Assembly (NCBI GenBank): GCA_963702025.1
Contig: OY969699.1
Span: 389,746-453,745, forward strand
DNA from: an uncultured bacterium
Lineage (GTDB): Bacteria > Babelota > Babeliae > Babelales > Vermiphilaceae
Reading direction: 5' to 3'
DNA length: 64,000 nt
In this document: positions 30,358 to 54,435 of the stretch, one piece after another
Layout of the letters: each line of letters starts with the position of its first letter
How positions within the stretch are numbered: position 1 is the first letter of the stretch
Notes under the pieces: generated by a model
Databases searched by the model: none
Told to the model about the DNA's origin: nothing
What the model saw: the letters and a program-made list of their open reading frames with translations, nothing else
Translations under genes and position numbers: made by a program

Positions 30358-30442
30358 AAAGATTCCTTGGCAAGTTGCGGAGAAAAAACGTAGGATTATA
30401 GTATTACTATACAAGAAAATGAATAAAAATTAAGGGTGCTCG

Positions 30443-32181: not shown

Positions 32182-32342
32182 AGAAATTTTACCTATGTCC
32201 GCTCGTGGTGAGTGATTGCGAAGCAATCATATCGAACCATGCGGACAAAACACAATTGATTTTATTACACAAAAGGCCGCATAGATTCGATACGCCTCAT
32301 TTCATTCGGCTACTCACTACGAGCGGCCTGAAGAAATTTACC
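32182..32342. repeat. MITE-like composite: two inverted copies of the dispersed ~45-bp repeat unit, flanked by a short direct repeat
   Basis: The left arm 32198-32246 and right arm 32276-32328 are mutual reverse complements (gtccgctcgtggtgagtg...atcgaaccatgcggac versus ggccgcatagattcgatacg...tactcactacgagcggcc). The flanks are agaaattttacct and agaaatttacct. Confidence 0.6.
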
Positions 32343-32383
32343 TAAACTAAAGCTTTTCTATCAATTCTCAGGTCGAACTCGCA

Positions 32384-32617
32384 TTAGTTTAATTTTTCAG
32401 GAAGACTGCGCGGTTGATTTTTCTTATAAGAAATGGGAAGGCTATGAATCTTGCGCATATGAACTTTTAACTCACCGGCAGTTCTAAATTTCTGCAGACA
32501 TTCTTGGCGTCTTATATTTTTCACCCTGCAGATAACGTCTTCTGCATCATACATGCACCATGAAATTAATGGTAATAAGAATAAATTGATGAAATAAAAA
32601 TGTTGAAAGAATTTCAT
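32384..32617 (-). CDS. small exported protein with one degenerate C2H2-like finger
   Basis: N-terminal hydrophobic segment, then C-x9-C-x12-H-x4-H (CRVKNIRRQECLQKFRTAGELKVHMRKIH). Its ATG overlaps the upstream stop (ATGA). Confidence 0.4.
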   Translation of the reverse strand: MKFFQHFYFINLFLLPLISWCMYDAEDVICRVKNIRRQECLQKFRTAGELKVHMRKIHSLPISYKKNQPRSLPEKLN

Positions 32618-34092
32618 GGCAACTCCTCAAATTGATATTTTTTAATTCTTTCTTGAAGATAATTTTTTATTTTGAGGGTTCCAAGAATTTCTTTTACTCT
32701 GCTCGCTTTGGGTATTTTTTCTTTGCGACCATAATGATGCTCAGCAATTAAGAGCGCAATTAATTGTTGTAAAGTGGTATGTTTGGCAAATCCTTGCCCA
32801 TGCAAGAGCAACTGCCCTCGTGGCAAAAGTAAATAATTATAATCGTTACAAAAAATTAATGGGTTCTTAATCTCATTTTTCTCATTTGCAATGGGCAGCG
32901 TCGCAAATATATTCATGGTTTTAAGATCATAAATTTTTAATATGTCAGGCTGATCACTATCGGTTGCGTTATAAATATACAAATAGTGTGAATTGGGGCA
33001 AAAACATAAATGGGTAGATTCAGTTATTATTTCGGGTGGTATTTCCGTTTTTTCTTCTGTTTCTACATTAAAAATAACGGTTGATGTATTACTGTTGCTT
33101 GCCAAGAATTTACCATCATTGCTCACGCAACTTACCGGTGGCATAGATAATGTTTTAAAGTTGCCTAATTTACTGGTGATATACATTTGTATTGGTGTAA
33201 TGAGATTAAAATAAAGTATATAATTGAATGCGGGACTGATTGCAAAAGGTCTAAGAAAGTTATGTCGCAAATGGGCAGTTTGTTTTTGTCCGGTAGCAGC
33301 ATTAAATATTTCAGCAATTTGCTTTTCAATAATAACAGGAAAAGAATCTTTTCCGACGACAACGCGGTGTCCATTTTTGCTATAGCAGCCATAATAAAAT
33401 CTGTTGTCGGCATACGCTATTAAATCATGGCTATCTAATGTGAATGCGCAGATGCCCGAATTAAGATTAGTTCTAAATTGTGCCCAAACGGTGTTATTAT
33501 TTGGCGCAATGCTGAATATTCGCAATTCTTTGGCATGAGGATATAGTGTTTTAATTTTTTCATTCACGATGGTGCAATCGCTTACCAGTGCATTGGTACG
33601 GGCATCATATATTTTCTGTTCATGATGACATAAAGTTTTATCAGCATTTATGGTCGGTTTCATTAAATATGGTTCATTGTGTTGTTTCTCAATCGGATCA
33701 GGGATCAATAGAAAATTTTCATGAAAATTTTTCATTGGAAAATGTTGATCAGAGGTATAGTTGGGCTGATAAGCGAGGCATAGATTGGCTGAGGATGGTA
33801 AATTTTGGTTGGGTTCTTTTAAGATAACTATTTTTTGCGGTGTTTGATTCTCTAAGATTTGTTCTATTCGATCATGAGCACGTTTGCGTAATTGGTGATG
33901 AATAGTAGAAGCAATATCATGATTTACGATATCAGATTGTAAGAATTTTAATGCCGACTCATAATTTTCTTGCGGATCACATAATTTTGAGACCACATTA
34001 GCAGCAAGCTCGGCGCATGAAGGGATGCGAGAGTTCATTCCATGAATATTTTGGAATATGCATATGGCACTGATAATTATTACTATGGTCAT
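32614..34092 (-). CDS. exported hypothetical protein, possibly beta-propeller (WD40-like) repeats
   Basis: 492 aa with a signal peptide. Strand-like repeats such as SNDGKFLASNSNTSTVIFNVETEE and YSKNGHRVVVGKD. Translationally coupled to both neighbours. Confidence 0.4.
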   Translation of the reverse strand: MTIVIIISAICIFQNIHGMNSRIPSCAELAANVVSKLCDPQENYESALKFLQSDIVNHDIASTIHHQLRKRAHDRIEQILENQTPQKIVILKEPNQNLPSSANLCLAYQPNYTSDQHFPMKNFHENFLLIPDPIEKQHNEPYLMKPTINADKTLCHHEQKIYDARTNALVSDCTIVNEKIKTLYPHAKELRIFSIAPNNNTVWAQFRTNLNSGICAFTLDSHDLIAYADNRFYYGCYSKNGHRVVVGKDSFPVIIEKQIAEIFNAATGQKQTAHLRHNFLRPFAISPAFNYILYFNLITPIQMYITSKLGNFKTLSMPPVSCVSNDGKFLASNSNTSTVIFNVETEEKTEIPPEIITESTHLCFCPNSHYLYIYNATDSDQPDILKIYDLKTMNIFATLPIANEKNEIKNPLIFCNDYNYLLLPRGQLLLHGQGFAKHTTLQQLIALLIAEHHYGRKEKIPKASRVKEILGTLKIKNYLQERIKKYQFEELP

Positions 34093-34592
34093 ATAAGATT
34101 CTTGCTTTCTTTTATTAATTCTTTAAAACAATCATCCATTTGCGCTAAATCCGCATCATTTATTTCTAATGAACTAATATCATCAAAATTGTTGGCTGGC
34201 AATGGAAGGGTTGGCGCGTTATTATTTTGTTCAGGAATAGTGTCATTTTTATGCATGTTATAAAGATGCCGCAATAAACATTTTGCGGTTTTTAAATTGT
34301 TATTAGGGCATCCATAAGAGCATTTATAGAGAAGCGATTTTTTATTTTTTTGGGATTTTTTTTTCTTAATGGGTGAAGATGTTTTTTTAGCATTTTCGTT
34401 ATGGTTTGCTAAATGCTTAATCATTATTTTTTCTGTTTTGAAAAATTTTTCACATTTTAAACATTTAAAATTTGTATTAAATACAGAAAATTTTTTAAGA
34501 CAAACATTTGAGATTTTAGATTCCATTGCATGGCTATATGATGAGAGAGTGAGGCCGATTAAAAGACCACAGAAAATTTCTTTATTATTCAT
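34089..34592 (-). CDS. secreted classical C2H2 zinc-finger protein
   Basis: The start is taken at MNNKEIFCGLLIGLTLSSYSHAME (ATG at 34592). Fingers are FKCLKCEKFFKTEKIMIKHLANH and YKCSYGCPNNNLKTAKCLLRHLYNMH. Confidence 0.65.
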   Translation of the reverse strand: MNNKEIFCGLLIGLTLSSYSHAMESKISNVCLKKFSVFNTNFKCLKCEKFFKTEKIMIKHLANHNENAKKTSSPIKKKKSQKNKKSLLYKCSYGCPNNNLKTAKCLLRHLYNMHKNDTIPEQNNNAPTLPLPANNFDDISSLEINDADLAQMDDCFKELIKESKNLI

Positions 34593-35274
34593 GATTGTTT
34601 CCCTCTGTTTGTCTTGGAGAAAAAGGATTATTTTCAAATGGTTCTCTATTATTTTGACTTTCCCAAGCAGAAATAGTTTGAGCGACTTCATTGTCAGCAA
34701 GATTATGGCTAGAAAGATCCTGTGGTGGGATAAGAGTATTCGAGGTGATAGCGTTATTGCAATTTTGTTCATTGTTTGTTGCTAAAATGGCGGTAGTTTT
34801 TTTTCTTGTTATCTTGCATATATGTTTGTTTAGAAAATGATTATCCAGTCTCAATTTAGACATATATACTTGATTGCATTGCTGACATCGGTGAATTATT
34901 TTAAATTTTGTCATATCTTCTTGTTCTTCGCTGATTCTCCCCAATGAATGATTCTCGGATAAATGGGATTGCAATGATTGAAAGTCTCTAGTCTTAAAAT
35001 TGCAATTGGAAGAAGTGCATTCATATGATCCCAGTACAAATGGCCTATCCTCTTCTTTGTATTCTAGTTCTGCGTTGATCCCATGCTTTTTTAAATGTTT
35101 GTTCAGCAAGGGGATAGAGTTATAAACACAGTTGCATAGTGGGCAAAGAAAATGTTGAGTGAACATTATTTTTTGTTTTTTGTTTGCTGTTTGGTTGTTT
35201 GGCATTTCCATTGAATTGGCAGTAATGGCTATTGCTGCAAGAAAAAATCCAGCTACTATTTTTTTATGGTTCAT
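34585..35274 (-). CDS. secreted classical C2H2 zinc-finger protein (3 fingers)
   Basis: Signal peptide MNHKKIVAGFFLAAIAITANSME. Fingers are FLCPLCNCVYNSIPLLNKHLKKH, YECTSSNCNFKTRDFQSLQSHLSENH and HRCQQCNQVYMSKLRLDNHFLNKH. Confidence 0.7.
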   Translation of the reverse strand: MNHKKIVAGFFLAAIAITANSMEMPNNQTANKKQKIMFTQHFLCPLCNCVYNSIPLLNKHLKKHGINAELEYKEEDRPFVLGSYECTSSNCNFKTRDFQSLQSHLSENHSLGRISEEQEDMTKFKIIHRCQQCNQVYMSKLRLDNHFLNKHICKITRKKTTAILATNNEQNCNNAITSNTLIPPQDLSSHNLADNEVAQTISAWESQNNREPFENNPFSPRQTEGNNHE

Positions 35275-35288
35275 TATCTTTACTCCAT

Positions 35289-36461
35289 TTATGGTAATTT
35301 CTGTATCAATTGGGCATATGTTTTAGCACCACATGCACGTGCTTTATCAATAGCTTCTTGAATCATAGGATCATTTTGAAATTGCTCAAAAGTTGCCAAA
35401 AGCATATCCAATCCAGTCATTTTTGTTTTATTTTGGAGAGTGAATATCCAATTGATATCAGCGCCGGCATTAATTATTCTATTAATAGTCTCAATGCTAC
35501 AATATATTATAAACATGCTGAGAAATGGTTTACAAATTGTTGAATTAAGCGGGAACATGCACTGCACCAGTGCGCTATGATCAAGTAATAACCCTATAAT
35601 AGCATCTATATCCATAGGAGATTTTTCGGGCGAATCTGCGATTTTATTTGTATATGCAATAAACGCCAACGTTGCGGCTTGTTGTGGTTTAAGAGAATGC
35701 TTCAAGAGAAAATTAATCAATTCGTAGTCATCATTTTCTATAACTTTCTCCCACATTATTTCAATACTTATGTTCTTGCCTTGATTTAAATATGATTTTA
35801 TTCTTTTCAGGACATTTATCGAATCGCACACGGGGTATCGTTTGCTGTCTTGGGTAAATATTTCAATTAGGTGATCACACAAAGATTCTTTTTGTCTCTT
35901 GCTCAGAGAGTCATTCTTGAAAATTATAACGTAAATCAATGCTTGAATTGCTCTATCGGATAATCCTGCCGTTTTCTTGGTCAGAAGTTCATCGATTTTC
36001 TCTTTAATTGCATCAAATGTTGTTGACGATTTCAAATGAGACTCTAAAGCGGCTATCAATAGGCTTGAGGATCCCTTTATTTCATCAAATTGTAAGATTG
36101 ATTCAATATTTTTTTGGCAAAATTCCTCAATAAGCTTTTGCACCGTTATTTGTGCATCCGAAGCGAGAGCTGTTTTTTTTCTAATTATATGAAGCAGCTC
36201 AAGTTTAGCAGCAAATGAAAGGTTATGATTATCAGCGATCAGGCAAGCGGCAGGAAGATAGCTACAGTCGTCTAAAGCTTTAATATTCTCTAAAATAGTA
36301 ATTTTATCTGTTTTTTCGAAAAAGGGTGCTATTTGATCTTGCAATTGAGCAATTTGCGCTTCTTTTTGCTCAATTCGCTCTTGTTCTTGTGTTTTCATGC
36401 CGAAAGTATAAGCAGGAATAAGGCATAAAAAAACCATGCTCAAGCGATTAAAAGTATTCAT
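35289..36461 (-). CDS. secreted hypothetical protein with ankyrin-like C-terminal repeats
   Basis: Signal peptide MNTFNRLSMVFLCLIPAYTFGMK. Contains LINFLLKHSLKP, IIGLLLDHSALV and INRIINAGADINW. Confidence 0.45.
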   Translation of the reverse strand: MNTFNRLSMVFLCLIPAYTFGMKTQEQERIEQKEAQIAQLQDQIAPFFEKTDKITILENIKALDDCSYLPAACLIADNHNLSFAAKLELLHIIRKKTALASDAQITVQKLIEEFCQKNIESILQFDEIKGSSSLLIAALESHLKSSTTFDAIKEKIDELLTKKTAGLSDRAIQALIYVIIFKNDSLSKRQKESLCDHLIEIFTQDSKRYPVCDSINVLKRIKSYLNQGKNISIEIMWEKVIENDDYELINFLLKHSLKPQQAATLAFIAYTNKIADSPEKSPMDIDAIIGLLLDHSALVQCMFPLNSTICKPFLSMFIIYCSIETINRIINAGADINWIFTLQNKTKMTGLDMLLATFEQFQNDPMIQEAIDKARACGAKTYAQLIQKLP

Positions 36462-36526
36462 AAAACCTCCATTTCTAGGTATTTAGTAGGATTATCTATT
36501 CTAGAATAACACTCTTTACAATAATG

Positions 36527-43979: not shown

Positions 43980-44972
43980 TTATTGTTCAAGAATTTCTAA
44001 AAGCCTTTTAAAATCGTCAGGAATTTCTTGCGAAAAAGTATACGGTACATTCTGAAAGGTAAATGAGAGGGATGATGCATGCAATGCATGGCGGTCAATG
44101 AGTTTTGACGATGCGCCATACATAAAATCACCAACAAGTGGATGACCGATCGCGCTCAAATGAACACGAATCTGATGGGTGCGTCCGGTTAGAGGATTAA
44201 TTTGCACTAATGCATGATTGTCAAAGTAACGCAGCACGGTGTAATGAGAAAGCGCGTGGCGAGTTGATGGTTGATTGCGCTGGCGATAATGAGTTGTTAA
44301 CGCCTTTTCATCAGGAATATGAGCCATCATTTTTTTTCGATTAACCGGATGACGGCCAATCGAAAAATCGATACTACCGGTAGCTGGCGGATGGCCTTCA
44401 ACTATGGCCAGATAAGTTTTTGCAATAGTGCGCTGTTTGAACATGGCGCCAAAGGTCATGTGAGCAAAATTGGTGCGAGGGATTATTAAAAGCCCCGATG
44501 TTTCTCTATCAAGACGATGCACAATTCCCGGGCGTTCAATACTGCCCACATCAACCAGCTCGTGATGGTTGGTCAAGAGCCAATCAACAACAGTTGGTTC
44601 GGTAGTTATTGTTTCGGTTTGATGAACAAGCAATTTGGCAGGTTTGGCAATAATAAAAAAATGTTCGTGCGCATAGAGTATCTTAATGCCTAAATCAGAG
44701 TTCACTGGGTTAAAAAGAGGCCGACTTGCTTCAAGTGGAAATGAGATGATAATAGTATCAGCTGTTTTTACCTGGGCGCTCGATTTTGCCGGTTGGGCAT
44801 TAATAGTAATAGCTTTTTGTTCCAGCAGGCCTTGAAAAAAACTGCGAGAATATTCAGGGAGCGCCACTGATAAAAATTTATCAATACGCTGACCTGCTTG
44901 CGATTCTTCAACCACCAACGATACTGTTGATGAAACTGGTTTGTTAGTGCTAATCTGAGATCTCATCTCCAT
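43980..44972 (-). CDS. rluD: RluA-family 23S rRNA pseudouridine synthase (RluD-like)
   Basis: S4-like N-terminus (QRIDKFL) and the catalytic motif HRLDRETSGLLII, followed by GRTHQIRVHL. Confidence 0.88.
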   Translation of the reverse strand: MEMRSQISTNKPVSSTVSLVVEESQAGQRIDKFLSVALPEYSRSFFQGLLEQKAITINAQPAKSSAQVKTADTIIISFPLEASRPLFNPVNSDLGIKILYAHEHFFIIAKPAKLLVHQTETITTEPTVVDWLLTNHHELVDVGSIERPGIVHRLDRETSGLLIIPRTNFAHMTFGAMFKQRTIAKTYLAIVEGHPPATGSIDFSIGRHPVNRKKMMAHIPDEKALTTHYRQRNQPSTRHALSHYTVLRYFDNHALVQINPLTGRTHQIRVHLSAIGHPLVGDFMYGASSKLIDRHALHASSLSFTFQNVPYTFSQEIPDDFKRLLEILEQ

Positions 44973-45150
44973 TTGTGCCCCATTAGGATTAAAATAGTAA
45001 AAAACTCCTTATTTTTAAAGATAAGGTATTGATACAGAATGTCAATCAAAAAAACCCTAATAGACAAGCTTTTTTTAATGGTTTAGTATGAGAAAAGCAG
45101 AGAGCAAAGATATGCTCAAAAATTTACTTAAGTAAATCCGTTTGCCTCGA

Positions 45151-45236
45151 TCCTTCGATACGCACCTTCGGTGCTACTCAGGATGTGTAAAAAACCACAC
45201 ATGGTGAGTGCGAGCTAAGCGAGCGTATCGAACCAT
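45151..45236. repeat. dispersed palindromic repeat: inverted pair in the mgtE upstream region
   Basis: Left arm ccttcgatacgcaccttcggtgctactcaggatg at 45151-45183. Right arm catggtgagtgcgagctaagcgagcgtatcgaaccatg at 45199-45236. The small hairpin tgtg-N-caca lies between them. Confidence 0.6.
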
Positions 45237-45268
45237 GACCCGAACGAACGGAAGTAAGGAGAATGTTC

Positions 45269-46627
45269 ATGAATAGTCAACGCTTATTGCATGAAATTCA
45301 GGATCATATGGAGGCGGTTATTACCCAGAATTCAGATTTGGGTAAGGGCCTCTGGGAACAATTTTTGCAGCTACATCCTGCTGATATAGCTGATTTTTTT
45401 TCCGATATTGATCCGGATTATTTCCAGTTGCTTTTCTTGAAACTCCCCAAAAAGCTTCAACTTGAGGTGTTTCAGGAGTTTTCAGATATTATCAAGGTGC
45501 ACAGCCTTGCCTTTATGAATGAGCAGGAACGTGTTGATGCGTTGAACACCCTCCCCATAGACCAATTAACCGATTTATTTGATCTTTTTTCTGACGAAGA
45601 GCTCAAGGTCTATTTAGAACTACTCAATAAAATGGCACGTGAAAAGGTGCTTTCGTTGTTAAAATTTGACCCGGAATCAGCCGGGGGCATCATGGACACG
45701 GAAGTTTTGGTGCTTATCCAGGATTTTACCGTAGAAAAAAGCATCCAAGTATTACAACGATTGCAGCCCAATAGAGAGATTTATCAACAGATTTATATCA
45801 CCGATCGCGATCATCATTTGCTAGGGCATATTCGGCTGGAAGATTTGGTATTGCAAAATCCCCAAGCGCGCATTCAATCCTTTATGCGGACAAATGAATA
45901 TGTGGCGCGCCCGGATGAAGATAGAGAGCCGATTGCAAAAAAAATGGTGCACTATGGCTTGATGACCGTGCCGGTTGTGGATGAAAATAATATATTTTTA
46001 GGAATCATTACCAATGAAACATTGGTTGATGTGTTGGTTGAAGAGGCCTCTGAAGACGTGCAAAAAATGTCTGCTTTGGCGCCAATGAAATATCCTTATT
46101 TTGAGACGTCATTTCTTCGCCTCTTATTTGAACGTGGCTATATTCTTATTGCACTACTCTTGGCCCAATCATTTTCTACCACTATTATGAAATCCTATCA
46201 AACAACATTGGAATATGGGGTTTTGCTTTATTTTACCACTATGTTGATTTCCACCGGCGGCAACACGAGCAGCCAAACATCGGCAATTGTGATTCAAGGG
46301 TTAATTACCGGCGAACTGCATGCCATGAATGTGTTTAAATTTTTGCGGCGCGAACTACTGATGTCGGTAATTTTAGGCCTTATTTTGGGCATCGTTGCTT
46401 TTTTTAGATCATATATTGCTGCTGCATCACTTATTGAAAGTGTTGCCATTAGCGCCTCATTAACAATTATCGTGATAGTTTCCACCATGCTTGGCAGCCT
46501 TATACCTCTCATGTTAAAAAGGCTGGGTATCGATCCGGCATTCTCCGCCGGTCCATTTTTGGCAACTTTAATGGATATTTTAGGAATTCTTATCTTTTGT
46601 TTTGTGGCACGTTGGATCTTGTTTTAA
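45269..46627 (+). CDS. mgtE: magnesium transporter MgtE
   Basis: N-domain, two CBS-like segments (LLGHIRLEDLV, FLGIITNETLVDVL), then 5 TM helices with the GGNTSSQ and PFLATLMDILG motifs. The ATG at 45269 is 8 nt after the AAGGAG RBS. Confidence 0.9.
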   Translation: MNSQRLLHEIQDHMEAVITQNSDLGKGLWEQFLQLHPADIADFFSDIDPDYFQLLFLKLPKKLQLEVFQEFSDIIKVHSLAFMNEQERVDALNTLPIDQLTDLFDLFSDEELKVYLELLNKMAREKVLSLLKFDPESAGGIMDTEVLVLIQDFTVEKSIQVLQRLQPNREIYQQIYITDRDHHLLGHIRLEDLVLQNPQARIQSFMRTNEYVARPDEDREPIAKKMVHYGLMTVPVVDENNIFLGIITNETLVDVLVEEASEDVQKMSALAPMKYPYFETSFLRLLFERGYILIALLLAQSFSTTIMKSYQTTLEYGVLLYFTTMLISTGGNTSSQTSAIVIQGLITGELHAMNVFKFLRRELLMSVILGLILGIVAFFRSYIAAASLIESVAISASLTIIVIVSTMLGSLIPLMLKRLGIDPAFSAGPFLATLMDILGILIFCFVARWILF

Positions 46628-46636
46628 CTAAGTTGA

Positions 46637-47173
46637 CTAAATATTGTTTTCTTCAAAGTTAGAAACATCAAAAAAATACAAATGGTTGGCTTTGCAGATT
46701 TCATCTGAAGGTGGTTCTTGTATTTTTTCTCTTGAATTTTTATTAAAAACGCCAATGAGCTTAATAGATCTATCAAGGAATTTTGCATGTTTTTTAGTAC
46801 GTTGAATAACCAGATATTCGCTCATGGTATAATATCCGGTTTCTCTCTTATCTTTATCGAGAATAGGATTTACCCAGTGGCCTCCTGCTTCGTGCATATT
46901 CGTTAATTGCCCGGCGCCGATGCTTAATTCTGAGAATCCTGCTTTTAACTCCGCTTTTATTTGAGCAACACAGGTAGGCTTAGTTTCTTTCATAAACTCT
47001 TCGCTGGACATACTTTGCATTGGCAATATGTGGAGTGCTGCAAAGAGTAGTGCCGTTGCAGTAATTATTTTTATTCTACTTCGCAAGAAAACCTTGGATG
47101 GTTTTTTGCTTCGAAGAATTGCAGCACGATACAACGACTCAAAAGCCGTTGCGCGCTTCATTTGTCTGTTCAT
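46637..47173 (-). CDS. hypothetical exported protein
   Basis: 178-aa ORF with a basic N-terminus and hydrophobic segment ITATALLFAALHILPMQSM. No family recognised. Confidence 0.45.
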   Translation of the reverse strand: MNRQMKRATAFESLYRAAILRSKKPSKVFLRSRIKIITATALLFAALHILPMQSMSSEEFMKETKPTCVAQIKAELKAGFSELSIGAGQLTNMHEAGGHWVNPILDKDKRETGYYTMSEYLVIQRTKKHAKFLDRSIKLIGVFNKNSREKIQEPPSDEICKANHLYFFDVSNFEENNI

Positions 47174-47419
47174 AAAGGTTTCTTGGCCTCGCGAACTTTC
47201 TGTGGTTTTTTCTTAGTTAACAGATCTTTTTTCTCAAGTTGCGCCTCAAATTGCTCTACCGTTTGCACATTACTTTTGAAATCTTTGGGTAAAGATCCCA
47301 AATTTCAGCTCCATAATCTGCAGCTTTCAAATGAAATTCTTTTAAAAAAGGCGCTGCGTCCGCCGAAGCTGATAAGCGAAGGCCGGATAGCCAAATTTTT
47401 TAAAAGAATTTAAAAAATT

Positions 47420-47494
47420 TGGCGTCCCCACAGGGAATCGAACCCGGATTTCCGCCGTGAAAGGGCGATGTCCTAACCGTTAGACGATGGGGAC
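47420..47494 (-). tRNA. tRNA-Glu (anticodon UUC), CCA encoded
   Basis: The reverse complement is GTCCCCATCGTCTAACGGTTAGGACATCGCCCTTTCACGGCGGAAATCCGGGTTCGATTCCCTGTGGGGACGCCA. It folds as a cloverleaf with anticodon loop CTTTCAC. There is one C-U mismatch in the T stem. Confidence 0.85.
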
Positions 47495-47546
47495 GTGTAA
47501 TTTGAAAGAGAAATTTCTAAGTATCAAACCATCCTTTAAAGGACTG

Positions 47547-47620
47547 GCTCTACTTCGCTGCTGACGCAGCTACGAAGAGCGGTCCGCGCCAGGCCCTTCG
47601 ACTTCACTTCGCTCAGGATA
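47547..47620. repeat. structured repeat-related sequence filling the tRNA-Lys/tRNA-Glu spacer
   Basis: An imperfect long hairpin gctctacttcgctgc-tgac-gcagctacgaagagc, then cccttcgacttcacttcgctcaggat. The latter is a short inverted member of the family (ctgag...tcgaaggg core). Confidence 0.45.
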
Positions 47621-47677
47621 AACTCCGCTCTTACAAACGTGTTTATACTTCGGAGCCTAACCTGCGTAGGCGAAGAC

Positions 47678-47753
47678 TGGTGAGCCGCGTTGGAATCGAA
47701 CCAACGACCCACAGCTTAAAAGGCTGTTGCTCTACCGACTGAGCTAGCGGCTC
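47678..47753 (-). tRNA. tRNA-Lys (anticodon UUU), CCA encoded
   Basis: The reverse complement is GAGCCGCTAGCTCAGTCGGTAGAGCAACAGCCTTTTAAGCTGTGGGTCGTTGGTTCGATTCCAACGCGGCTCACCA. It forms a perfect cloverleaf with anticodon loop CTTTTAA. Confidence 0.92.
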
Positions 47754-47915
47754 AAACACACCAATTCAAACAAAAATTGAAAAGACATTAATAAATAGTA
47801 GAGATTGAGGGTATTTTTGTCAAGCAAAAGCAAATTGTAACGAAAAAGAATTATTATCTAGAGCTTTTTTCTTATCTTTCTGATTATATCCGATCTTTCA
47901 TCTATTGCACGGAAT

Positions 47916-48036
47916 CCGTTCATGGTGACCCTTCATTACGCACCTAAAGCTTCGAGTAATTAAGCCTGCAGGGATTAAATTACCCTTCGATAAGCCGCTG
48001 TGTGAGCGGCACTCAGGGCGAGCGGGCGAAGGGTAA
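47916..48036. repeat. dispersed palindromic repeat: partial unit plus an inverted unit nested in a long hairpin
   Basis: ccgttcatggtga at 47916-47928. ttacccttcgataagccgctgtgtgagcggcactcagggcgagcgggcgaagggtaa at 47980-48036, followed by T8. Confidence 0.55.
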
Positions 48037-48256
48037 CTTTTTTTTGCTTTGAAGAATAAAATCTTTTCTTTTTGAATAATAAAAGATGGCTCTTGATCGA
48101 TGCTCCATGCCTGTAGAATTGCATATTTGAATTAAATATAAATGTAATAATCCGTGCGTTTGACAAGGGAATATTTTAATATAATCTTAAAGTTAAGCTT
48201 TCTTTTAAATTAAGTTCTAAAATAAATGTTTTTATAGCTATTTTAAGGTATCACAC

Positions 48257-49420
48257 ATGAAAAAACTTTTATTAATACTCGTTAGTTCTGCTTCAGCATT
48301 AAACATGAATGCTGAGCCAATATCAGAATTTGTTACATGGGCCAAAGATCCTTTCACCAACATTATGGTTAATGAAGGCGTGAGCGCTTTAGGCAAAGAT
48401 GCAAAGGCTTTGGCTGCCGCATCATGGAAACTTGCACAAGATGGCTACAAAATGTTGCCCAGTAAAGAAGTCCTCTTGAAATCAGTAAAAGATGGTGGAA
48501 ACAAATCTTATGCTGCGGCCAGAAGTTTTATTACCAGTAACCCGAGGGCTACAATTTTTACTGCAGTAGGCGCCGCATTCGCTGCTCCGCTTATAGCCGG
48601 TTTGATCGCATCTTTTTATGATGAAAAAAAACGCACTGCGGAAGAAAACGAATTGAGATCCTTGCAGGTTATTATCTATGGTATCAAAGATTATTTGAAT
48701 AAATTTCCCGATGAAAGCACTAATCCATTAGATCCTGAAATTACACGCTTTAATAATGAAATCATGTTACGTGCATTTTATGACACCTTAAAATATGCAA
48801 GTGAAGAATTAAATAACTGTTCACAATGCTTTGTAAATTTAAATCTTAAAAGTCAAATTGATAATGTAATAAAAATTATCAATAATGATATGACCGTAAT
48901 AGGATTGGAAAACAAAGAGTTTGAAAAGGCTTTTATTGATTTAAAAGCGGCCATGAAAGTTCTTAATGATTGGGTATCCACCTCATCGCGTGGTTATGTT
49001 AGCTGGTTCTCTTCTTTTATAAAGCATGTTAACAACGTTGAGCATTATTTAAATGCCCTTCGTTCACCGGTTCAAGGTGAGAAGGTTCCATCAGTTGAGT
49101 CCATTCAAGAAGACGTTCGCAAAAGAGAAGCTTATGAGACTCTCGACTGGATTAATAGAGTTCAGTTTGTGTCTATTCATCCAGAGCTGATTGAGGCATT
49201 TAATCACTTAAAGCAAATAGTATGCGAAGACATTACAAACGTAACGGTCAATAATGCGGAATTAAAAAGATTGCTATACGGTTTAGAGCAAAGCGCATTC
49301 ACGCGTTTACAAAAAATTGATAAATCAATTGCGGTCTCTGTTGCTTTTGGAGCTATTCCAACAATAAGCTTTCCGCTTATTGCGTTTGCAAAGATTGTAG
49401 AAGGATTCGATCATCAATAG
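48257..49420 (+). CDS. hypothetical exported/membrane protein
   Basis: 387-aa ORF with signal peptide MKKLLLILVSSASALNMN, an internal TM (IFTAVGAAFAAPLIAGLIASF) and a C-terminal hydrophobic segment. No family recognised. Confidence 0.5.
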   Translation: MKKLLLILVSSASALNMNAEPISEFVTWAKDPFTNIMVNEGVSALGKDAKALAAASWKLAQDGYKMLPSKEVLLKSVKDGGNKSYAAARSFITSNPRATIFTAVGAAFAAPLIAGLIASFYDEKKRTAEENELRSLQVIIYGIKDYLNKFPDESTNPLDPEITRFNNEIMLRAFYDTLKYASEELNNCSQCFVNLNLKSQIDNVIKIINNDMTVIGLENKEFEKAFIDLKAAMKVLNDWVSTSSRGYVSWFSSFIKHVNNVEHYLNALRSPVQGEKVPSVESIQEDVRKREAYETLDWINRVQFVSIHPELIEAFNHLKQIVCEDITNVTVNNAELKRLLYGLEQSAFTRLQKIDKSIAVSVAFGAIPTISFPLIAFAKIVEGFDHQ

Positions 49421-49478
49421 TCGGCTCACACAAGGTTAAAAAATGTTGTTTATTATTAATCATTCATGGAGGATTCCT

Positions 49479-49859
49479 ATGAATACTTTCAAATCTATGT
49501 TATCAGTAGCAGTGTTATTGTCAGGTATGTCAGCAGCTGCTTTTCCAGGTCAAGCATTCATTCAAGCTATTAGAGCAAGAATACCATCTATGCCATCTAT
49601 GCCTTCCAAAAAAGATGCTTCTGAATTTTTAGCACTTGCTAGTGCTACAGCTGGAAATACGTTGAACAATGCATATCAATGTGCTCAACCGTATTTGACC
49701 AAGAAAACTGCTGCTATTTCAGCAGGCGTTATAGCTACTACCGCTGCCACCGCGGTTGCCTACAAAAAAGGTTACTTTGGTAAAGCAGCTAACGTTGTTG
49801 CAAATGCTGCAAAAGCTGCAAAAAATGCAGCAGCTGCAAAATTTGCGAGCAAAAAGTAA
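49479..49859 (+). CDS. small exported protein with conserved AYKKGYFGKAAN C-terminal module (paralogue 1)
   Basis: GGAGG RBS before the ATG at 49479. Signal peptide, Ala-rich TM segment, basic tail. Confidence 0.5.
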   Translation: MNTFKSMLSVAVLLSGMSAAAFPGQAFIQAIRARIPSMPSMPSKKDASEFLALASATAGNTLNNAYQCAQPYLTKKTAAISAGVIATTAATAVAYKKGYFGKAANVVANAAKAAKNAAAAKFASKK

Positions 49860-49882
49860 TCAGATTTCTCTCTGATCTTTGA

Positions 49883-49903
49883 GGGGGTGTGCAACACGCC
49901 CCC
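49883..49903 (+). terminator. stem-loop terminator candidate after 49479-49859
   Basis: gggggtgtg-caa-cacgccccc, a 9-bp stem with one G-U pair, followed by gcttaattct (weak T tract). Confidence 0.45.
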
Positions 49904-49940
49904 GCTTAATTCTAATCCGTCTTTATATATGGAAAATTAC

Positions 49941-50318
49941 ATGAAATTAAAAAAAATTATTTTATCAGCAGCATCTGTAGCATTATTGCAATCGATGTCT
50001 GTTGTGGCTGGAATACCAACTAAAGATTTCAACTTCTTAGAAGATTCGGCTCATTTAGAAAAATGTTTAGAGTTTGCACCGCAGGCGTTTTTTGATGTCC
50101 AGAAAAGTATTACGAGCACTATGAAAAATTTTGCGACCAATACTCTTACTAAACGTAATGTTATTGGTGCAGCAGTAGTTGCAACCGTTGTAGGTTCCGC
50201 TGTTGTTGCCTATAAAAAAGGTTACTTTGGTAAAGCAGCTAACTTTGTTGTAAATACCGCAAAATTAGCAAAAAAAGCATTAACCGGCCCAATAGTTGAT
50301 CCAAATTCAGGTAAGTAA
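49941..50318 (+). CDS. small exported protein with conserved AYKKGYFGKAAN C-terminal module (paralogue 2)
   Basis: MKLKKIILSAASVALLQSMSVVAG signal peptide. Same C-terminal module as paralogue 1. The start is uncertain (49929 or 49941). Confidence 0.45.
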   Translation: MKLKKIILSAASVALLQSMSVVAGIPTKDFNFLEDSAHLEKCLEFAPQAFFDVQKSITSTMKNFATNTLTKRNVIGAAVVATVVGSAVVAYKKGYFGKAANFVVNTAKLAKKALTGPIVDPNSGK

Positions 50319-50343
50319 TCGGTTTTCTCTGTAATCTTTAAAA

Positions 50344-50368
50344 GGGTGCTTTATCGCACCCTTTTTTT
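50344..50368 (+). terminator. intrinsic terminator after 49941-50318
   Basis: gggtgc-tttatc-gcaccc followed by T7. Confidence 0.7.
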
Positions 50369-50485
50369 GTGCCAAATTTTTTATCAAACCCTGCATGAGT
50401 TTCTTTTCAAAAATTAAGCGAGAGCTATACTGGTGTCTTGAATTCATCATACTTTCTCATCATTTAACGCAAGAAAGAATCTACC

Positions 50486-51502
50486 ATGAAACAAATGCAT
50501 CGCCTTATCATAACAACAGCTCTATTCTTTTGTTCACTTGCACATGCTTTACAGGAAAGCACGTATCACTATAAAGAAGAACTGGAAAATTTTAAAAAGT
50601 CACCGCAGTATGAGCTTATTTTTAATGAAGATACTCATCCGATAGTAAGGGGTCTCAATCGTGATATTGAAAATTATAAAGAATTGACAAATTGGCAACG
50701 AATTACGCGATTTGGATTGTTAACATTTGCGGTAGTTGTTACTGCTGATGCCATGCCAAAACTCTATGCATGCATTGATGGCGTGTGTAATAAAAGTAGA
50801 ATTGCAATGCCTACCGTCTTTGTAACGGTAGACAAAGGATTTTTTAATGCGGCGGCAATAAAATTATTAAAAAGCACCGGAGCCATTGTAATTGGCCAAA
50901 AGATGATATACAAGACAAATGATCGTCAATTAGAGGCGATTATAGCCCATGAGATAGGCCACATTAAACATGATCACATAAATAAAACACTTGAGTTGCT
51001 TTTGCCAACTGCCGTTATTATTCAAGCGTTAAAATATTGCATTCTCAATAGATTTAGGGTGTTTCCAGAAAGTAATAAATTGTTCTATTGGGCAGTCGAT
51101 ATTTCTCTAACATGGCGTTTAGCAGCCATCATAACCAACCTGATGCTTAATAAGAAATTTGAAAAAGAAGCCGATGAATTTGCCTATGGAGATATGGGCA
51201 AAGGGGAGGGACTCATTGAGTTTTTTGATCTGTTGCAAGAAAAAGAATTGCAGACAGATGCAGATTTTATTGCCACGTATGTCAAATTGCAAGAGAATGA
51301 ATCAGAGATTGAGCCGGCAGATTATGCCGGTTTGAAGTTTAGTTTTTATGTAGCAAGGGGCATCCGTTATTTGGAAAACGCGTATAGATGGTTTTATTAT
51401 AATACTCGGTATGGGGCGCATCCCAGCCCGCAAGCGCGTAGTGCAACGATTCAAAAATATCTTGAAGAACAAGTTGCGGATGAAGAAATTGATACTGAGT
51501 AA
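50486..51502 (+). CDS. M48-family zinc metallopeptidase (HtpX/Ste24-like)
   Basis: HEIGHIKHDH (HExxH) with a downstream E (EKEADEF). Signal/TM segments present. Confidence 0.7.
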   Translation: MKQMHRLIITTALFFCSLAHALQESTYHYKEELENFKKSPQYELIFNEDTHPIVRGLNRDIENYKELTNWQRITRFGLLTFAVVVTADAMPKLYACIDGVCNKSRIAMPTVFVTVDKGFFNAAAIKLLKSTGAIVIGQKMIYKTNDRQLEAIIAHEIGHIKHDHINKTLELLLPTAVIIQALKYCILNRFRVFPESNKLFYWAVDISLTWRLAAIITNLMLNKKFEKEADEFAYGDMGKGEGLIEFFDLLQEKELQTDADFIATYVKLQENESEIEPADYAGLKFSFYVARGIRYLENAYRWFYYNTRYGAHPSPQARSATIQKYLEEQVADEEIDTE

Positions 51503-51613
51503 TAAATAGGGCTAAAGATAAGATGCCTTTTAATTAGAAAGCTTTGTTGAATTTTACATACATCCATGTAAAATATACATAAATATATAAATTTTCATTG
51601 CTCAGGAAAATAT

Positions 51614-51805
51614 ATGAAAAGAAGAGATTTGGAGCGTGCGCTTACCAAGTTAGGTTGGTATCTAAAGAGAAATGGTGCAAAGCATGATTTGTGGACTAAT
51701 GGCCAAGAAGAAGAGACAATACCGCGGCACAATGAGATTAATGAGTTGCTTGCAAAAAAGATTTTAAGGACAGCTCAAAAAGCTTCAAAAAGGGAAATAA
51801 AATGA
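51614..51805 (+). CDS. hicA: type II toxin HicA (mRNA interferase)
   Basis: MKRRDLERALTKLGWYLKRNGAKHDLWTNG...IPRHNEINELLAKKILRTA is the typical HicA/YcfA pattern. The protein is 63 aa. Confidence 0.85.
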   Translation: MKRRDLERALTKLGWYLKRNGAKHDLWTNGQEEETIPRHNEINELLAKKILRTAQKASKREIK

Positions 51806-52215
51806 AAATTGTCGGAAAAGTTTGGAAAAGCGAAGATAGAAAATTTTGGCTTGCGGAGATCCCAGCTTTAGATCTTATGACGCAAGCAAAAAGCAAAAAA
51901 GCAATACCTGAAATGATTAAAGATGCGGTAGAACTATTGATGGATGATTCTTCTTTTTCTGTAAAAGTAACAGCGTTTGATGATTTTGTCTTTCTTGATG
52001 CAAATGATACAAAAAAATTAATTGCATTAATTCTTAAAAGACAAAGGCAGAAAAATCATTTGAATTTAGAAGAAGTTGCGACACATTTAAGAGCGCGATC
52101 AATCAATGAATATGCACAATATGAACAGGGTCGACATTTGCCCAGTTTTGATAAGTTTGAACAATTATTAAAGGCAATAGATCCGAATCTAAGTTTGTTT
52201 ATGTCATTGAAGTAG
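51802..52215 (+). CDS. hicB: type II antitoxin HicB with C-terminal XRE-type HTH
   Basis: ATGA overlap with hicA. N-terminal HicB fold pattern (KFWLAEIPALDLMTQAKSKKAIPEMIKDAVELL) plus HTH LNLEEVATHLRARSINEYAQYEQGRHLPS. Confidence 0.8.
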   Translation: MKIVGKVWKSEDRKFWLAEIPALDLMTQAKSKKAIPEMIKDAVELLMDDSSFSVKVTAFDDFVFLDANDTKKLIALILKRQRQKNHLNLEEVATHLRARSINEYAQYEQGRHLPSFDKFEQLLKAIDPNLSLFMSLK

Positions 52216-52232
52216 GTTTTAAAGGTGAGTTT

Positions 52233-52772
52233 ATGTATATCAATAAAATTGGTATTAAATCTTTGTTTAGGTGGTTTTCAAAAAAAAATATTAAAATAGA
52301 ACAAAACAATCGAGATGGATCAGCAAATGCAACTCAATCAGGTTTTGCCAATAAACAAACGGTTACTGTTGTAAAGAGTAGTAGTCAAAAACAAAGGGAT
52401 GATAATGAAAAGGCTCTTGAAAAATTTAGAGCTTTCAAAAAAATATTAAATGTATGGTTTCAAGAGAGAAAAAGTGAAAAGAAATATGCCGAATCAGTCT
52501 CAAAAGTATTTGATGCTTTGGATGATTTAATATTTGCTTTGAATTTTTTAGAAGAAAGCCATAAAGTTGCTGAATGGTTGCCTACTTTGAAAGAATTGCA
52601 TTCTATTTTAAAGCCGGAGTCTAAATTTTTTTCTGTAGGAAATAGGATGAGCGAGTTCTTTTCTCAACTCGATACAGAGTGGTATGATCGCAATAATTCG
52701 GAATTTGAGATTTTAGAGAATTTAGAAAAAGCTCTTGTTGAACTCTGTAAAGAAGGCCGCAAAAAAGATTAA
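52233..52772 (+). CDS. hypothetical protein
   Basis: 179-aa ORF 17 nt after hicB. No signal peptide or recognisable family. Confidence 0.4.
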   Translation: MYINKIGIKSLFRWFSKKNIKIEQNNRDGSANATQSGFANKQTVTVVKSSSQKQRDDNEKALEKFRAFKKILNVWFQERKSEKKYAESVSKVFDALDDLIFALNFLEESHKVAEWLPTLKELHSILKPESKFFSVGNRMSEFFSQLDTEWYDRNNSEFEILENLEKALVELCKEGRKKD

Positions 52773-52794
52773 AATTTTGAAAGATCGATGTTCT

Positions 52795-53010
52795 TTAATA
52801 GTAACTCATAATTAAAAATCCATTTGTCCAAAAGCCAAAGCCATGGACGTTGAGGATATCCGGCGATCCTGCACCTTTGTTGATAAAGCCTAATTTTTCA
52901 TATAATTGGAATGCTTTTTTATTGCATTGCAAAGGTTGCGCGGTGCATTGTTCCTTTCCCCGTTCGTGCTGATTTATGCAAGCCTTAAGATTTAATATCT
53001 GGTGACTCAA
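52795..53010 (-). pseudogene. C-terminal fragment of a GNAT acetyltransferase
   Basis: ...CNKKAFQLYEKLGFINKG... is the GNAT motif-B/C-terminal pattern. Only ~70 codons remain. The ORF starts at a TTG immediately after an in-frame TAG, and the acetyl-CoA-binding motif A is absent. Confidence 0.4.
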
Positions 53011-53180
53011 CTACAAAAATTGTAACATCTTTTTTTCTTGTTTATTCTACTTTCGCAAGAAAACTCCAGGGTTTTTTGGCTTCGAAGAATTTCGCATAAT
53101 GCAGCGGCTTTTAAATTTTTAAGCCATTGCATTGCTGCTTCATTTTTGTATCTTATTTAAAAAAGTCTCAAAGGAAAGTT

Positions 53181-54029
53181 ATGCGAAATACCATTTTTTT
53201 ACTGCTATTAATTGCCTGCACAAGTAAACCGATAACCAAAGATGCTTTATTGCCCGTTATCAAACAGCCGCATCCCTTTTCCTATGATCTGGGTGTTAGC
53301 CTAATTCCGGCTAAGAAAGCAGATGCGCCGGTAATGATCTGTTGCCATGGTTATGGCTATAATAATCGTGTGGCGGCAGACGTTGGCACCGTTCCGGCAG
53401 TGTGTGAGCATCTGATCGGCTTTAATTTCCCTGATTATGGCTGCACCAAACGGCCCGGCTTTGATATTAAAAAAAGCACGTTCGGCACCATTGATGAAAT
53501 TGTGCCGTTATTATATCTGATTAAACAATGCGTAGTTGATGCGAACCTTGATGCCATTAATCTCTATGGATTCTCCGCGGGTGGTGGCGCGATTATCAAT
53601 GCATTGGTTGTTTTAAAAAGCTCGAACTATGATGAGCAGCTTAAAAAAGTTGGCATTATTCCTGAACACAAAATAAAGATGCTCGATGCGATGCAAAAAG
53701 GGCTGATTATTCTGGATTGTCCTCTCAAATCAATGGATGAAATTTTTGCCATGCGTCAGACACCGGAGCTTGAATTTTTATCGGAGCGGTATGCAAAAAA
53801 TAATATGCGGCCCATCGATGCAATTAGCCGCCTCAAAGGCTTACGGCTCACCATTCTTTTGCATTTTCAAAACCCGGATGAAATGATCGGCAACCGTGAT
53901 GATGCCCTTTATGCCGAGCGGTTAAAATCTGCCAATGGTGGCAGTACCCAGGTGGTAATTGCCAACGAAGGCGGACATAACACGCATCATGCCTCATTGT
54001 GGAATGCGTATAAAAATATAAAAAAGTAA
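53181..54029 (+). CDS. alpha/beta-hydrolase lipoprotein
   Basis: ATG at 53181 with an AAGGAAAG RBS. Lipobox LLLIAC. Nucleophile elbow GFSAGG, and a C-terminal GGHN..H. Confidence 0.6.
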   Translation: MRNTIFLLLLIACTSKPITKDALLPVIKQPHPFSYDLGVSLIPAKKADAPVMICCHGYGYNNRVAADVGTVPAVCEHLIGFNFPDYGCTKRPGFDIKKSTFGTIDEIVPLLYLIKQCVVDANLDAINLYGFSAGGGAIINALVVLKSSNYDEQLKKVGIIPEHKIKMLDAMQKGLIILDCPLKSMDEIFAMRQTPELEFLSERYAKNNMRPIDAISRLKGLRLTILLHFQNPDEMIGNRDDALYAERLKSANGGSTQVVIANEGGHNTHHASLWNAYKNIKK

Positions 54030-54034
54030 TGGAT

Positions 54035-54077
54035 CCGTTCATGGTGAGTGATTTCGAAGAAATCGTATCGAACCATG
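54035..54077. repeat. dispersed palindromic repeat, single complete unit between convergent genes
   Basis: ccgttcatggtgagtgatttcgaagaaatcgtatcgaaccatg. Outer stem catggt/accatg and inner hairpin gatttc-gaa-gaaatc. Confidence 0.65.
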
Positions 54078-54081
54078 CTCC

Positions 54082-54435
54082 TTATTCTTTTACCTTAACT
54101 GCTGGTTCAGCGTTGGCGTTCGGTTTAACTATACAGCGGCCAACATTATCAAGATCCCATTGCTTGCAGTAGCAAAAATTGCCATGTTTATCATCGTTTA
54201 CATAAACGGGACTATCATCCGCTTCTTTGTCTCGTGGGCCACATTTATGGGAACACCAGCATTTGCAGTTATTTTTCATATCTTGGCAGGTCTGTTTGGT
54301 CGGGCAAATAACACTATTTGCATCTTTATATGGCGCATAATGGCTGCGCAATAAAGAACTAGCAATTCTATAGACTGCAAAAAGTGCTGAGCCGGCAAGC
54401 AAAACAGCAATAATTATTTGTCTTCTTAATATCAT
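54082..54435 (-). CDS. membrane-anchored cysteine-rich hypothetical protein
   Basis: 117 aa with an N-terminal TM helix, then 12 Cys (CPTKQTCQDMKNNCKCWCSHKC...FCYC...C). Confidence 0.45.
   Translation of the reverse strand: MILRRQIIIAVLLAGSALFAVYRIASSLLRSHYAPYKDANSVICPTKQTCQDMKNNCKCWCSHKCGPRDKEADDSPVYVNDDKHGNFCYCKQWDLDNVGRCIVKPNANAEPAVKVKE

Follow-up and report, generated by a model that had tools for sequence, protein, structure and literature searches.

The subject of this work is a hairpin-forming repeat that lies between the genes of a 64,000-nucleotide stretch of DNA (the window; positions 389,746 to 453,745 of contig OY969699.1, assembly GCA_963702025.1) from an uncultured bacterium of the Vermiphilaceae (Babelota). 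In other genomes, repeats of the same family bracket the gene of a small GIY-YIG nuclease. An earlier note on the window had described the repeat as a dispersed, structured and intergenic family with conserved unpaired flanks, and this description holds. The motif TGAGTG-N(8-30)-TATCGAA occurs 5 times in the window versus 0.01 expected, N4-TGAG-N(3-50)-TCGAA-N4', when pairing of the outer stem is required, is found 6 times versus 0.5 expected, and every copy lies between open reading frames (ORFs) of at least 90 aa.

A covariance model (CM) of the repeat unit, in the building of which 123 copies were used, gave seven significant matches in the window. Three further fragments or short copies were below threshold or read directly, and the two fragments and the short copy were as the earlier note had described them. 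The repeats are confined to the region from 32.2 to 54.1 kb, with no copy found at positions 1-32000 or past 54100. At each site of the window, the strand opposite to the unit scored about 10 bits, versus 45-60 bits for the unit strand. The unit thus has a direction. The family and its structure had been correctly perceived in the earlier note, which had overlooked the 5' tag that orients the unit, the organization in dimers and the link with a nuclease gene.

Anatomy of the unit

Read from 5' to 3', the unit consists of a tag, a 4-bp outer stem, TGAG, a variable inner hairpin, (Y)GTA-TCGAA and the partner of the outer stem. The tag is CCGYTC or NCACAC. Among 130 distinct copies, C was found at position -1 in 125, position -2 is T or A, position -4 is G or A and position -5 is C; no conservation was found on the 3' side of the same copies. 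The outer stem occurs as the types ATGG/CCAT, ATCC/GGAT, GCCC/GGGT, GTGG/CCAT, GTGC/GCAT and ATAC/GTAT. In the core, TGAG stands opposite CGAA, forming a T-A pair, tandem G.A and A.G mismatches and then a G-C pair, with the T of TCGAA unpaired. The next pair covaries from T-A to G-C (TGAG-T...A-TCGAA versus TGAG-G...C-TCGAA), and one or two bases of the 3' strand are unpaired. The inner hairpins had a mean folding energy of -6.1 kcal/mol, versus -1.9 in shuffled sequences. Their loops were triloops in 71 of 117 cases, 40 of these being GNA, and were closed by a C-G pair in 100 of the 117. C(GNA)G is a very stable type of DNA minihairpin, as in d(GCGAAGC), and such triloops are a feature of DNA hairpins.

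The compensatory changes that had been claimed for the stems were confirmed, both stems being found to covary strongly. In an alignment of 141 distinct copies from the window and 99 other loci, 95.3% of the cells were paired, versus 70.5% in shuffles, a level reached by 0 of 500 shuffles. The covariation score was 0.616 versus 0.175 in shuffles, slid controls were at most 58% paired, and each pair of the inner helix showed 47-67 double-sided changes. This alignment was fitted to the model and the scans required an outer stem, which creates a bias favouring the structure. Two tests are free from this bias: the folding of the inner hairpins mentioned above, and the pairing of the outer stem in unselected TGAG...TCGAA occurrences, which was complete (4/4) in 17-25% of them versus 2% expected. 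Both agree with the structure.

Besides the long form, there is a 21-nt short form, CCGYTC-N4-TGAGCTTGTCGAA-N4' (often with CCGTTC as the tag), which shares its tag, stem and G.A core with the long form and is found together with it in the same genomes. Some long forms have a whole short unit as their inner hairpin, for example CTGC-TGAGCTTGTCGAA-GCGG. Such nested units were observed in loci L178 (1219-1263 and 1542-1586), L164, L168, L120 (564-607), L135 and L174, and in some nested cases an inverted short unit occupies the loop of another unit. Such nesting points to the insertion of units into hairpins already present, or else to long forms that grew by nesting.

Table 1. Units, fragments and dimer spacer found in the window (window positions; CM, covariance model)
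Feature	Position	Strand	CM match or mode of detection	Parts, arrangement and context
Full long-form unit	32197..32246	+	32197-32248, 53.9 bits, E = 4e-15	GT-CCGCTC tag; outer stem GTGG/CCAT; TGAGTG; inner hairpin ATTGC-GAA-GCAAT; CATA-TCGAA; closing GCGGAC; left half of tail-to-tail pair with 32273..32328 (-)
Degenerate long-form unit, outer stem decayed	32273..32328	-	19.9 bits, E = 4e-4; outside the model-building set	GGCCGCTC-GTAG-TGAGTAG...GTATCGAA-TCTA-TGCGGC; right half of tail-to-tail pair
Full long-form unit, ATGG/CCAT type	43099..43141	-	43091-43143, 45.1 bits	CCGTTC tag, read as GAACGG on the + strand at 43136-43141
Fragment TCATCGAACCATG	43167..43179	+	Read directly	Inverted match to 43097-43109; 3' end of decayed partner, head-to-head with 43099..43141 (-)
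Full long-form unit, ATCC/GGAT type	45150..45184	-	45142-45192, 44.5 bits	TGAGTAG-CACC-GAA-GGTG-CGTATCGAA; left half of head-to-head heterodimer
Heterodimer spacer with both tags, GTGTAAAAAACCACAC	45185..45200			Complementary ends GTGT/ACAC; layout recurs in many loci
Full long-form unit, ATGG/CCAT type	45201..45236	+	45193-45244, 50.8 bits	Inner hairpin with second tandem-GA motif (CGAGC-TAA-GCGAG); right half of heterodimer
Short-form-like tagless unit, ATCC-TGAGCGAAGTGAAGTCGAA-GGGC	47593..47619	-	Read directly; under CM threshold	Between tRNA-Glu and tRNA-Lys
Truncated 5' end of a unit, CCGTTCATGGTGA	47916..47928	+	7.1 bits, not significant	
Full long-form unit, GCCC/GGGT type	47982..48025	-	47974-48027, 43.2 bits	CCGCTC-GCCC-TGAGTG-CCGCT-CACAC-AGCGG-CTTATCGAA-GGGT; upstream of tRNA-Lys
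Full long-form unit, ATGG/CCAT type, CCGTTC tag	54035..54077	+	54033-54084, 59.7 bits	Squeezed between two convergent stop codons (54029 and 54082)

The tRNA-Glu/tRNA-Lys pair of the window (47420-48030) is surrounded by debris of units: the tagless short unit and a degenerate CCGCTC hairpin lie between the two tRNA genes, and a truncated and a full unit lie upstream of tRNA-Lys.

Distribution, dimers and variable sites

An exact-flank scan of one genome per species identified at least 107 loci; the counts of genome loci given from here on are among the matches listed. Copies with exact flanks were found across phyla, in Dependentiae/TM6/Babeliales, Myxococcota (including a 5.98-Mb chromosome), Bacteroidales, Lentimicrobiaceae, Cloacimonadota, Pseudomonadota, Peribacteria and others. 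When the CM was applied to the window and 99 loci (0.79 Mb), 186 matches were obtained. Among the matches listed, the window most resembled soil metagenome-assembled genomes (MAGs), with 72-80% identity to L056 and 80% to L068, the identity to TM6 and Babeliales loci being about 66%. DNA of the window was detected in soil, peat and permafrost metagenome DNA runs only.

Neighbouring units form dimers, which were head-to-head in 21 cases, tail-to-tail in 12 and head-to-tail in 6. The gaps in head-to-head dimers were mostly 13-22 nt, both tags included. Nearly all of these dimers join two stem types, usually ATCC with ATGG, as exemplified by 45150-45236 in the window, and no head-to-head homodimer was seen among the loci listed. 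In the same dimer of the window and in others (e.g. L046, L068, L081 and L089), the tags were of the NCACAC type and the ends of the spacer could pair as GTGT...ACAC.

Copy positions were found to differ between related genomes, a comparison that the earlier note had proposed as a check. With respect to the window, L056 has a head-to-head doublet at a site that is empty in the window (about 30405-30430) and is without the pair found at 32197-32328. Similarly, L005 and L045 each have one insertion that is missing from the other. Units are thus present or absent at corresponding sites of syntenic genomes.

The doublet of L056 (3449-3583; a GCCC-type unit and an ATGG unit) is located between perfect 19-bp direct repeats, ATACTAGAAATATGATAAA, which are present as a single copy in the syntenic window. 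This was the sole long flanking duplication among 148 unit clusters. It is the trace of a rare insertion or else a local duplication without relation to it.

A GIY-YIG nuclease gene between inverted units

We scanned 10 ORFs that are bracketed by two units and found one of them to be a GIY-YIG gene and none to be a Y1 transposase. The GIY-YIG gene (locus L062, 6534-6833) encodes a 99-aa protein matching PF01541 only (E = 2.7e-16). It is flanked by near-identical inverted long-form units, 6468-6505(+) and 6833-6870(-), with their tags pointing outward. The Dependentiae MAG that contains it also has dispersed ATGG long-form copies resembling those of the window. All three GIY-YIG genes present among the at least 107 genome loci (L062, L066 and L059) were bracketed by inverted units with tags outward.

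The proteins encoded by these three loci were used to scan metagenomes, which yielded 80 loci with relatives at 51-66% identity. In these loci, the association between units and nuclease gene is tight and oriented. Units numbered 5.4 per kb up to a distance of 200 bp from the gene and 0.25 per kb beyond it, a 21-fold difference in density. The nearest upstream unit was in + orientation in 47 loci and in - orientation in 16, and the nearest downstream unit was in - orientation in 48 loci and in + orientation in 5. The median gaps between unit and gene were 41 nt and 16 nt. A strict canonical layout was found in 36 of the 71 assessable loci, and the flanking units comprised 77 short forms and 39 long forms. 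The canonical layout was also found in a 1.52-Mb contig (L426), where 10-13 nt separate the start and stop codons from long-form GCCC units.

The encoded proteins are single-domain GIY-YIG proteins of about 95-100 aa, the median called length being 107 aa among 81 relatives. The catalytic residues, namely the tyrosines of the GIY and YIG motifs, R29 and E66, were 93-100% conserved in these 81 sequences. The nearest neighbour of a protein had the same flank type in 50 of 59 cases, versus about 34 expected, an agreement that is also expected from common descent alone. The nuclease clade comprised 2428 clusters at E <= 1e-10, which are named 'GIY-YIG nuclease family protein' only and are mostly found on very short contigs. 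The contigs of this clade that were numbered P0001-P0120 were mostly 0.5-3 kb long, as assembly breaks at flanking multi-copy repeats would give.

An NCBIfam scan of the nuclease gave nothing above cut-off. The best matches with a solved structure were UPF0213 proteins of the same size (PDB 1zg2, BH0048, and 1ywl, EF2693; E = 5e-15 and 2e-12), structures for which no function or association with repeats is described.

Relation to known systems and interpretation

The layout of the nuclease loci is that of a recently described system. SsnA is a 94-aa single-domain GIY-YIG protein that binds the CGTC-type Neisseria repeat NTS/dRS3 (Chenal et al. 2025, PMC11893778). It acts on single-stranded DNA (ssDNA) only, and on one strand only, cutting upstream of the hairpin in a manner that depends on bases 5' of the palindrome, and its homologues are typically arranged as NTS-ssnA-NTS (PMC11893778). 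For comparison, we used as an SsnA-type protein, standing in for N. meningitidis SsnA, the product of L240, an NTS-flanked homologue from IMG/VR. This locus reads CGTC-NTS(+), gene, NTS(-)-GACG, a layout identical to that of the unit-bracketed nuclease loci. In both systems, a gene encoding a single-domain GIY-YIG protein of about 95-100 aa is placed between inverted hairpin repeats with a conserved 5' tag outward, and in both the repeats have many dispersed intergenic copies, an unpaired upstream motif that gives them a direction, and a distribution over many phyla. They differ in their motif, which is CCGYTC + N4 + TGAG...TCGAA + N4' with tandem G.A and bulges in the present family, and CGTC + ATTCCCGC...GCGGGAAT + CYRG in the Ssn/NTS system.

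The units also resemble REPs, which have been sorted into two superfamilies: GTAG-tagged REPs, which go with RAYT transposases, and CGTC-tagged REPs, which occur across phyla, mostly as head-to-head heterodimers and without transposase (Di Nocera et al. 2013, PMC3733652). The latter are defined by a terminal CGTC (or TGTC/CCTC) tag, a perfect AT-first stem of 8-9 bp, a loop of 4-5 nt and a CCA-like tail. Common traits are a tagged palindrome of 20-50 nt, a stem of about eight 'pairs' with a loop of 4-5 nt (in the short form of the unit), many AT-first stems (here ATGG, ATCC and ATAC), a predominance of head-to-head heterodimers, a multi-phylum distribution and no associated transposase. The units differ from CGTC-tagged REPs by their tag (CCGYTC/NCACAC, with an extra base), their obligatory G.A mismatches, the long form with its inserted hairpin and the lack of a conserved tail. 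The TGAG/TCGAA motif is absent from the text and supplements searched of Di Nocera et al. (PMC3733652). In the literature searched, no paper was found to describe the motif or to link UPF0213-like proteins to repeats, and a search by repeat peptide and DNA strings gave nothing relevant.

We conclude that the repeats of the window are probably non-autonomous copies, solo or in dimers, of a hairpin family that belongs to an Ssn-type system of small GIY-YIG nuclease and hairpin repeats, its motif being a new variant and its nuclease probably forming a new subclade. The complete element would consist of two inverted units, tags outward, around a single-domain GIY-YIG gene of about 95-100 aa. By analogy with Ssn/NTS, the CCGYTC-N4-TGAG...TCGAA-N4' strand would fold, in ssDNA, into an irregular hairpin comprising the outer stem, a U/T-A pair, tandem G.A/A.G mismatches, a G-C pair, bulged bases on the 3' strand and the variable inner stem-loop. 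The nuclease would bind this folded hairpin on that strand only and would nick in or near the conserved 5' tag. Gene and repeats would act as a minimal insertion-sequence-like unit, with a role of the nuclease in the spreading of the units. Indirect support for the recognition of one strand of ssDNA is provided by the strand asymmetry of the model scores, the G.A mismatches and the C(GNA)G triloops. A more far-reaching proposal, to which we would give about even chances, is that we are dealing with a second nuclease/hairpin partnership, apart from Ssn/NTS. In this case, a UPF0213-like minimal GIY-YIG clade having its own ssDNA fold (tandem G.A, bulges, CCGYTC) would, with two such hairpins, make up a module of about 400-480 bp that propagates itself. 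This module would have seeded REP-like repeats in at least six bacterial phyla and be the source of 'PFDKLR / SLSNHER / HHER' ORFs.

Several observations weigh against the attribution of the window's repeats to such a nuclease system. No GIY-YIG homologue was found in the window (tblastn E > 6), and as there is no nuclease gene in these 64 kb, the link with the window's genome rests on the repeat family. About 20% of the assessable metagenome loci were without a strict unit on one or both sides; all six of the strict-test failures examined had variant inverted units, with CCGYTC outward. The published consensus of the Ssn-related motifs (SRM), HGTCWYN(0-2)YYVSBRHN(0-5)WNVSBRGN(0-2)RNCYNB, and NTS had no match in the window, and the units fail on both strands. 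Furthermore, the nuclease shares 32% identity (about 51 bits) with the L240 protein versus 40-43% (about 60-68 bits) with the UPF0213 structures 1zg2 and 1ywl. Because it scores nearer to UPF0213, the transfer of SsnA biochemistry crosses subfamilies. There was also no general target-site duplication, flanking direct repeats of at least 11 bp being found in 3 of 148 unit clusters, versus 8 of 1480 controls. The route by which solo units and head-to-head heterodimers are copied has no known mechanism yet, and the gene could instead home into existing repeat dimers. A classical miniature inverted-repeat transposable element, with terminal inverted repeats and a target-site duplication of fixed length, was rejected on the same counts of flanking repeats.

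If homing were the explanation, the repeats would pre-exist and spread by other means, and the GIY-YIG gene would be a homing cassette entering the spacer of tail-to-tail dimers, with the repeats as its target rather than its product or substrate family. Free-standing GIY-YIG homing endonucleases are indeed an established class. Moreover, the arrangement unit(+)-gene-unit(-) has the form of a tail-to-tail dimer whose spacer holds a gene, and gene-free tail-to-tail dimers exist (32197-32328 in the window and the 12 counted among the loci listed). We nevertheless consider homing unlikely. The distances between units and gene are short and stereotyped, the two units beside any one gene are nearly identical as a rule, the type of flank co-varies with the protein, and SsnA, the relative that has been studied, binds its own flanking repeat directly (PMC11893778).

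Still less probable is the possibility that the units are a REP/REPIN-type family moved by an HUH tyrosine transposase (a RAYT or a relative of IS200/IS605) whose gene lies in another part of the genome. The units have REP-like traits, being tagged palindromes that form head-to-head heterodimers with structured spacers and clusters, lie between genes and cause no target-site duplication (compare PMC3733652). Resemblance to the REP/REPIN-RAYT and IS200/IS605 systems extends to hairpins recognized on one strand of ssDNA, which we propose here by analogy, to an unpaired 5' guide or tag, to inverted dimers and to one small nuclease gene between repeats (the 'REPtron' layout). However, the enzyme is a GIY-YIG protein rather than an HUH/Y1 protein, a GTAG tag is lacking, and the unpaired motifs are the same across phyla, whereas RAYT-moved REPs are lineage-specific. 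All-against-all clustering of the 801 unit-adjoining ORFs of the loci and the window gave only housekeeping and ankyrin families, with no enriched gene family or transposase. The bracketed ORFs described above included the GIY-YIG gene and no Y1 transposase, and the association with the GIY-YIG gene is strong and oriented.

The explanation that we consider least probable of all is that the units are structured RNA elements selected at the transcript level, such as a stabilizer of untranslated regions, a terminator, a protein-binding hairpin like the kink-turn, or a tRNA-like minihelix. Such a reading, implicit in the earlier note, would fit with the sense orientation of 7 of the 8 window copies relative to the nearest gene or tRNA operon, with tandem G.A pairs beside bulged bases, which resemble RNA motifs, and with the strong covariation. 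Yet across loci, units between co-directional genes were sense in 34 cases versus antisense in 29 (108 sequences, crude ORF calls), which argues against a sense-RNA function. No T-run was found after the hairpins. The dominance of C-G-closed triloops, recalling DNA hairpins, and the tie to a nuclease family whose one characterized member acts on ssDNA only (PMC11893778) also speak against RNA.

Known RNA families were also considered as candidates. Rfam at gathering thresholds returned tRNAs only, and at E <= 10 the region 45100-45260 gave only noise (Hairpin ribozyme, 13.8 bits, Acido-Lenti-1 and RsmY). On inspection, the long form can be drawn as a kink-turn, with a C-stem, an AUC bulge and tandem GA; this candidate was rejected as the short form has 7 nt between its GA pairs, too few for a kink-turn, and the TGAGGAG/GTCTCGAA variant does not fit. 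A hammerhead was also rejected on inspection, the order of its core being different.

The suggestion that the unit is derived from a tRNA or is a tRNA-like minihelix had been based on a supposed T-loop GG and acceptor CCA. We found that the 'GG' of GGTTCGATAC and the 'CCA' of CTCACCA are strands of the outer stem and are replaced in other copies, where this stem reads CCTTCGATAC...CTCAGGAT or ...CTCAGGGC, so that 'GG'/'CCA' covary to CC/GGAT and CC/GGGC. The resemblance is therefore coincidental. In keeping with this, ARAGORN and Rfam saw only the two genuine tRNAs (47420-47494 and 47678-47753) and nothing at the copies, and a tRNA-like origin was rejected. The copies of the window should be annotated as repeat elements rather than as RNA genes or ORFs.

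The latter point touches on the link that the earlier note had drawn with repeats giving 'PFDK.../...HHER' ORFs. This link is supported in part: copies translate to MVRYDFFEITHHER and PFDKPLCERHSGRAG, and the short form co-occurs with the long one. Spurious ORFs of the PFDKLR / SLSNHER / HHER type, which occur in many annotated genomes, would derive from such repeats. A similar phenomenon was observed in loci with NTS-type repeats (L265, L278, L263 and L188, from IMG/VR), where stop-to-stop frames leading into SsnA-type genes read through CGTC-type repeats and give the peptides 'IPAFAGMT', 'SFPRRRESS' and 'PRLRGDD'. These are common spurious ORF strings.

The window contains a second, unrelated repeat of 51 nt, TTTATTCTACTTCGCAAGAAAAC...GGTTTTTTGCTTCGAAGAATT, with an internal dyad. 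Its two copies (47070-47120 and 53041-53091) are 73% identical; one is located inside or at the start of the ORF 46637-47173(-) and the other upstream of the ORF 53127-54029(+). The window also encodes ankyrin-repeat paralogues and contains paralogous tandem gene arrays with about 75-80% DNA identity (39518-42948, 8.7-11.6 kb, 14.5-16.8 kb and 49443-50318), which include four consecutive ankyrin-repeat genes of about 280 aa. These arrays fit with an intracellular, Dependentiae-like lifestyle.

If the proposed nuclease system is correct, very widespread and puzzling intergenic repeats, together with the junk ORFs that they seem to create, would gain a molecular partner. The Ssn discovery of 2025 would then reach past its defining motif and probably past its protein clade. 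Chenal et al. argue that site-specific ssDNA nucleases are useful as tools (PMC11893778), and the present clade would supply further ssDNA nucleases, specific for both site and structure, whose recognition code is different. Small GIY-YIG proteins and their flanking hairpins would thereby be suggested as a general type of modular element, comparable to REP-RAYT.

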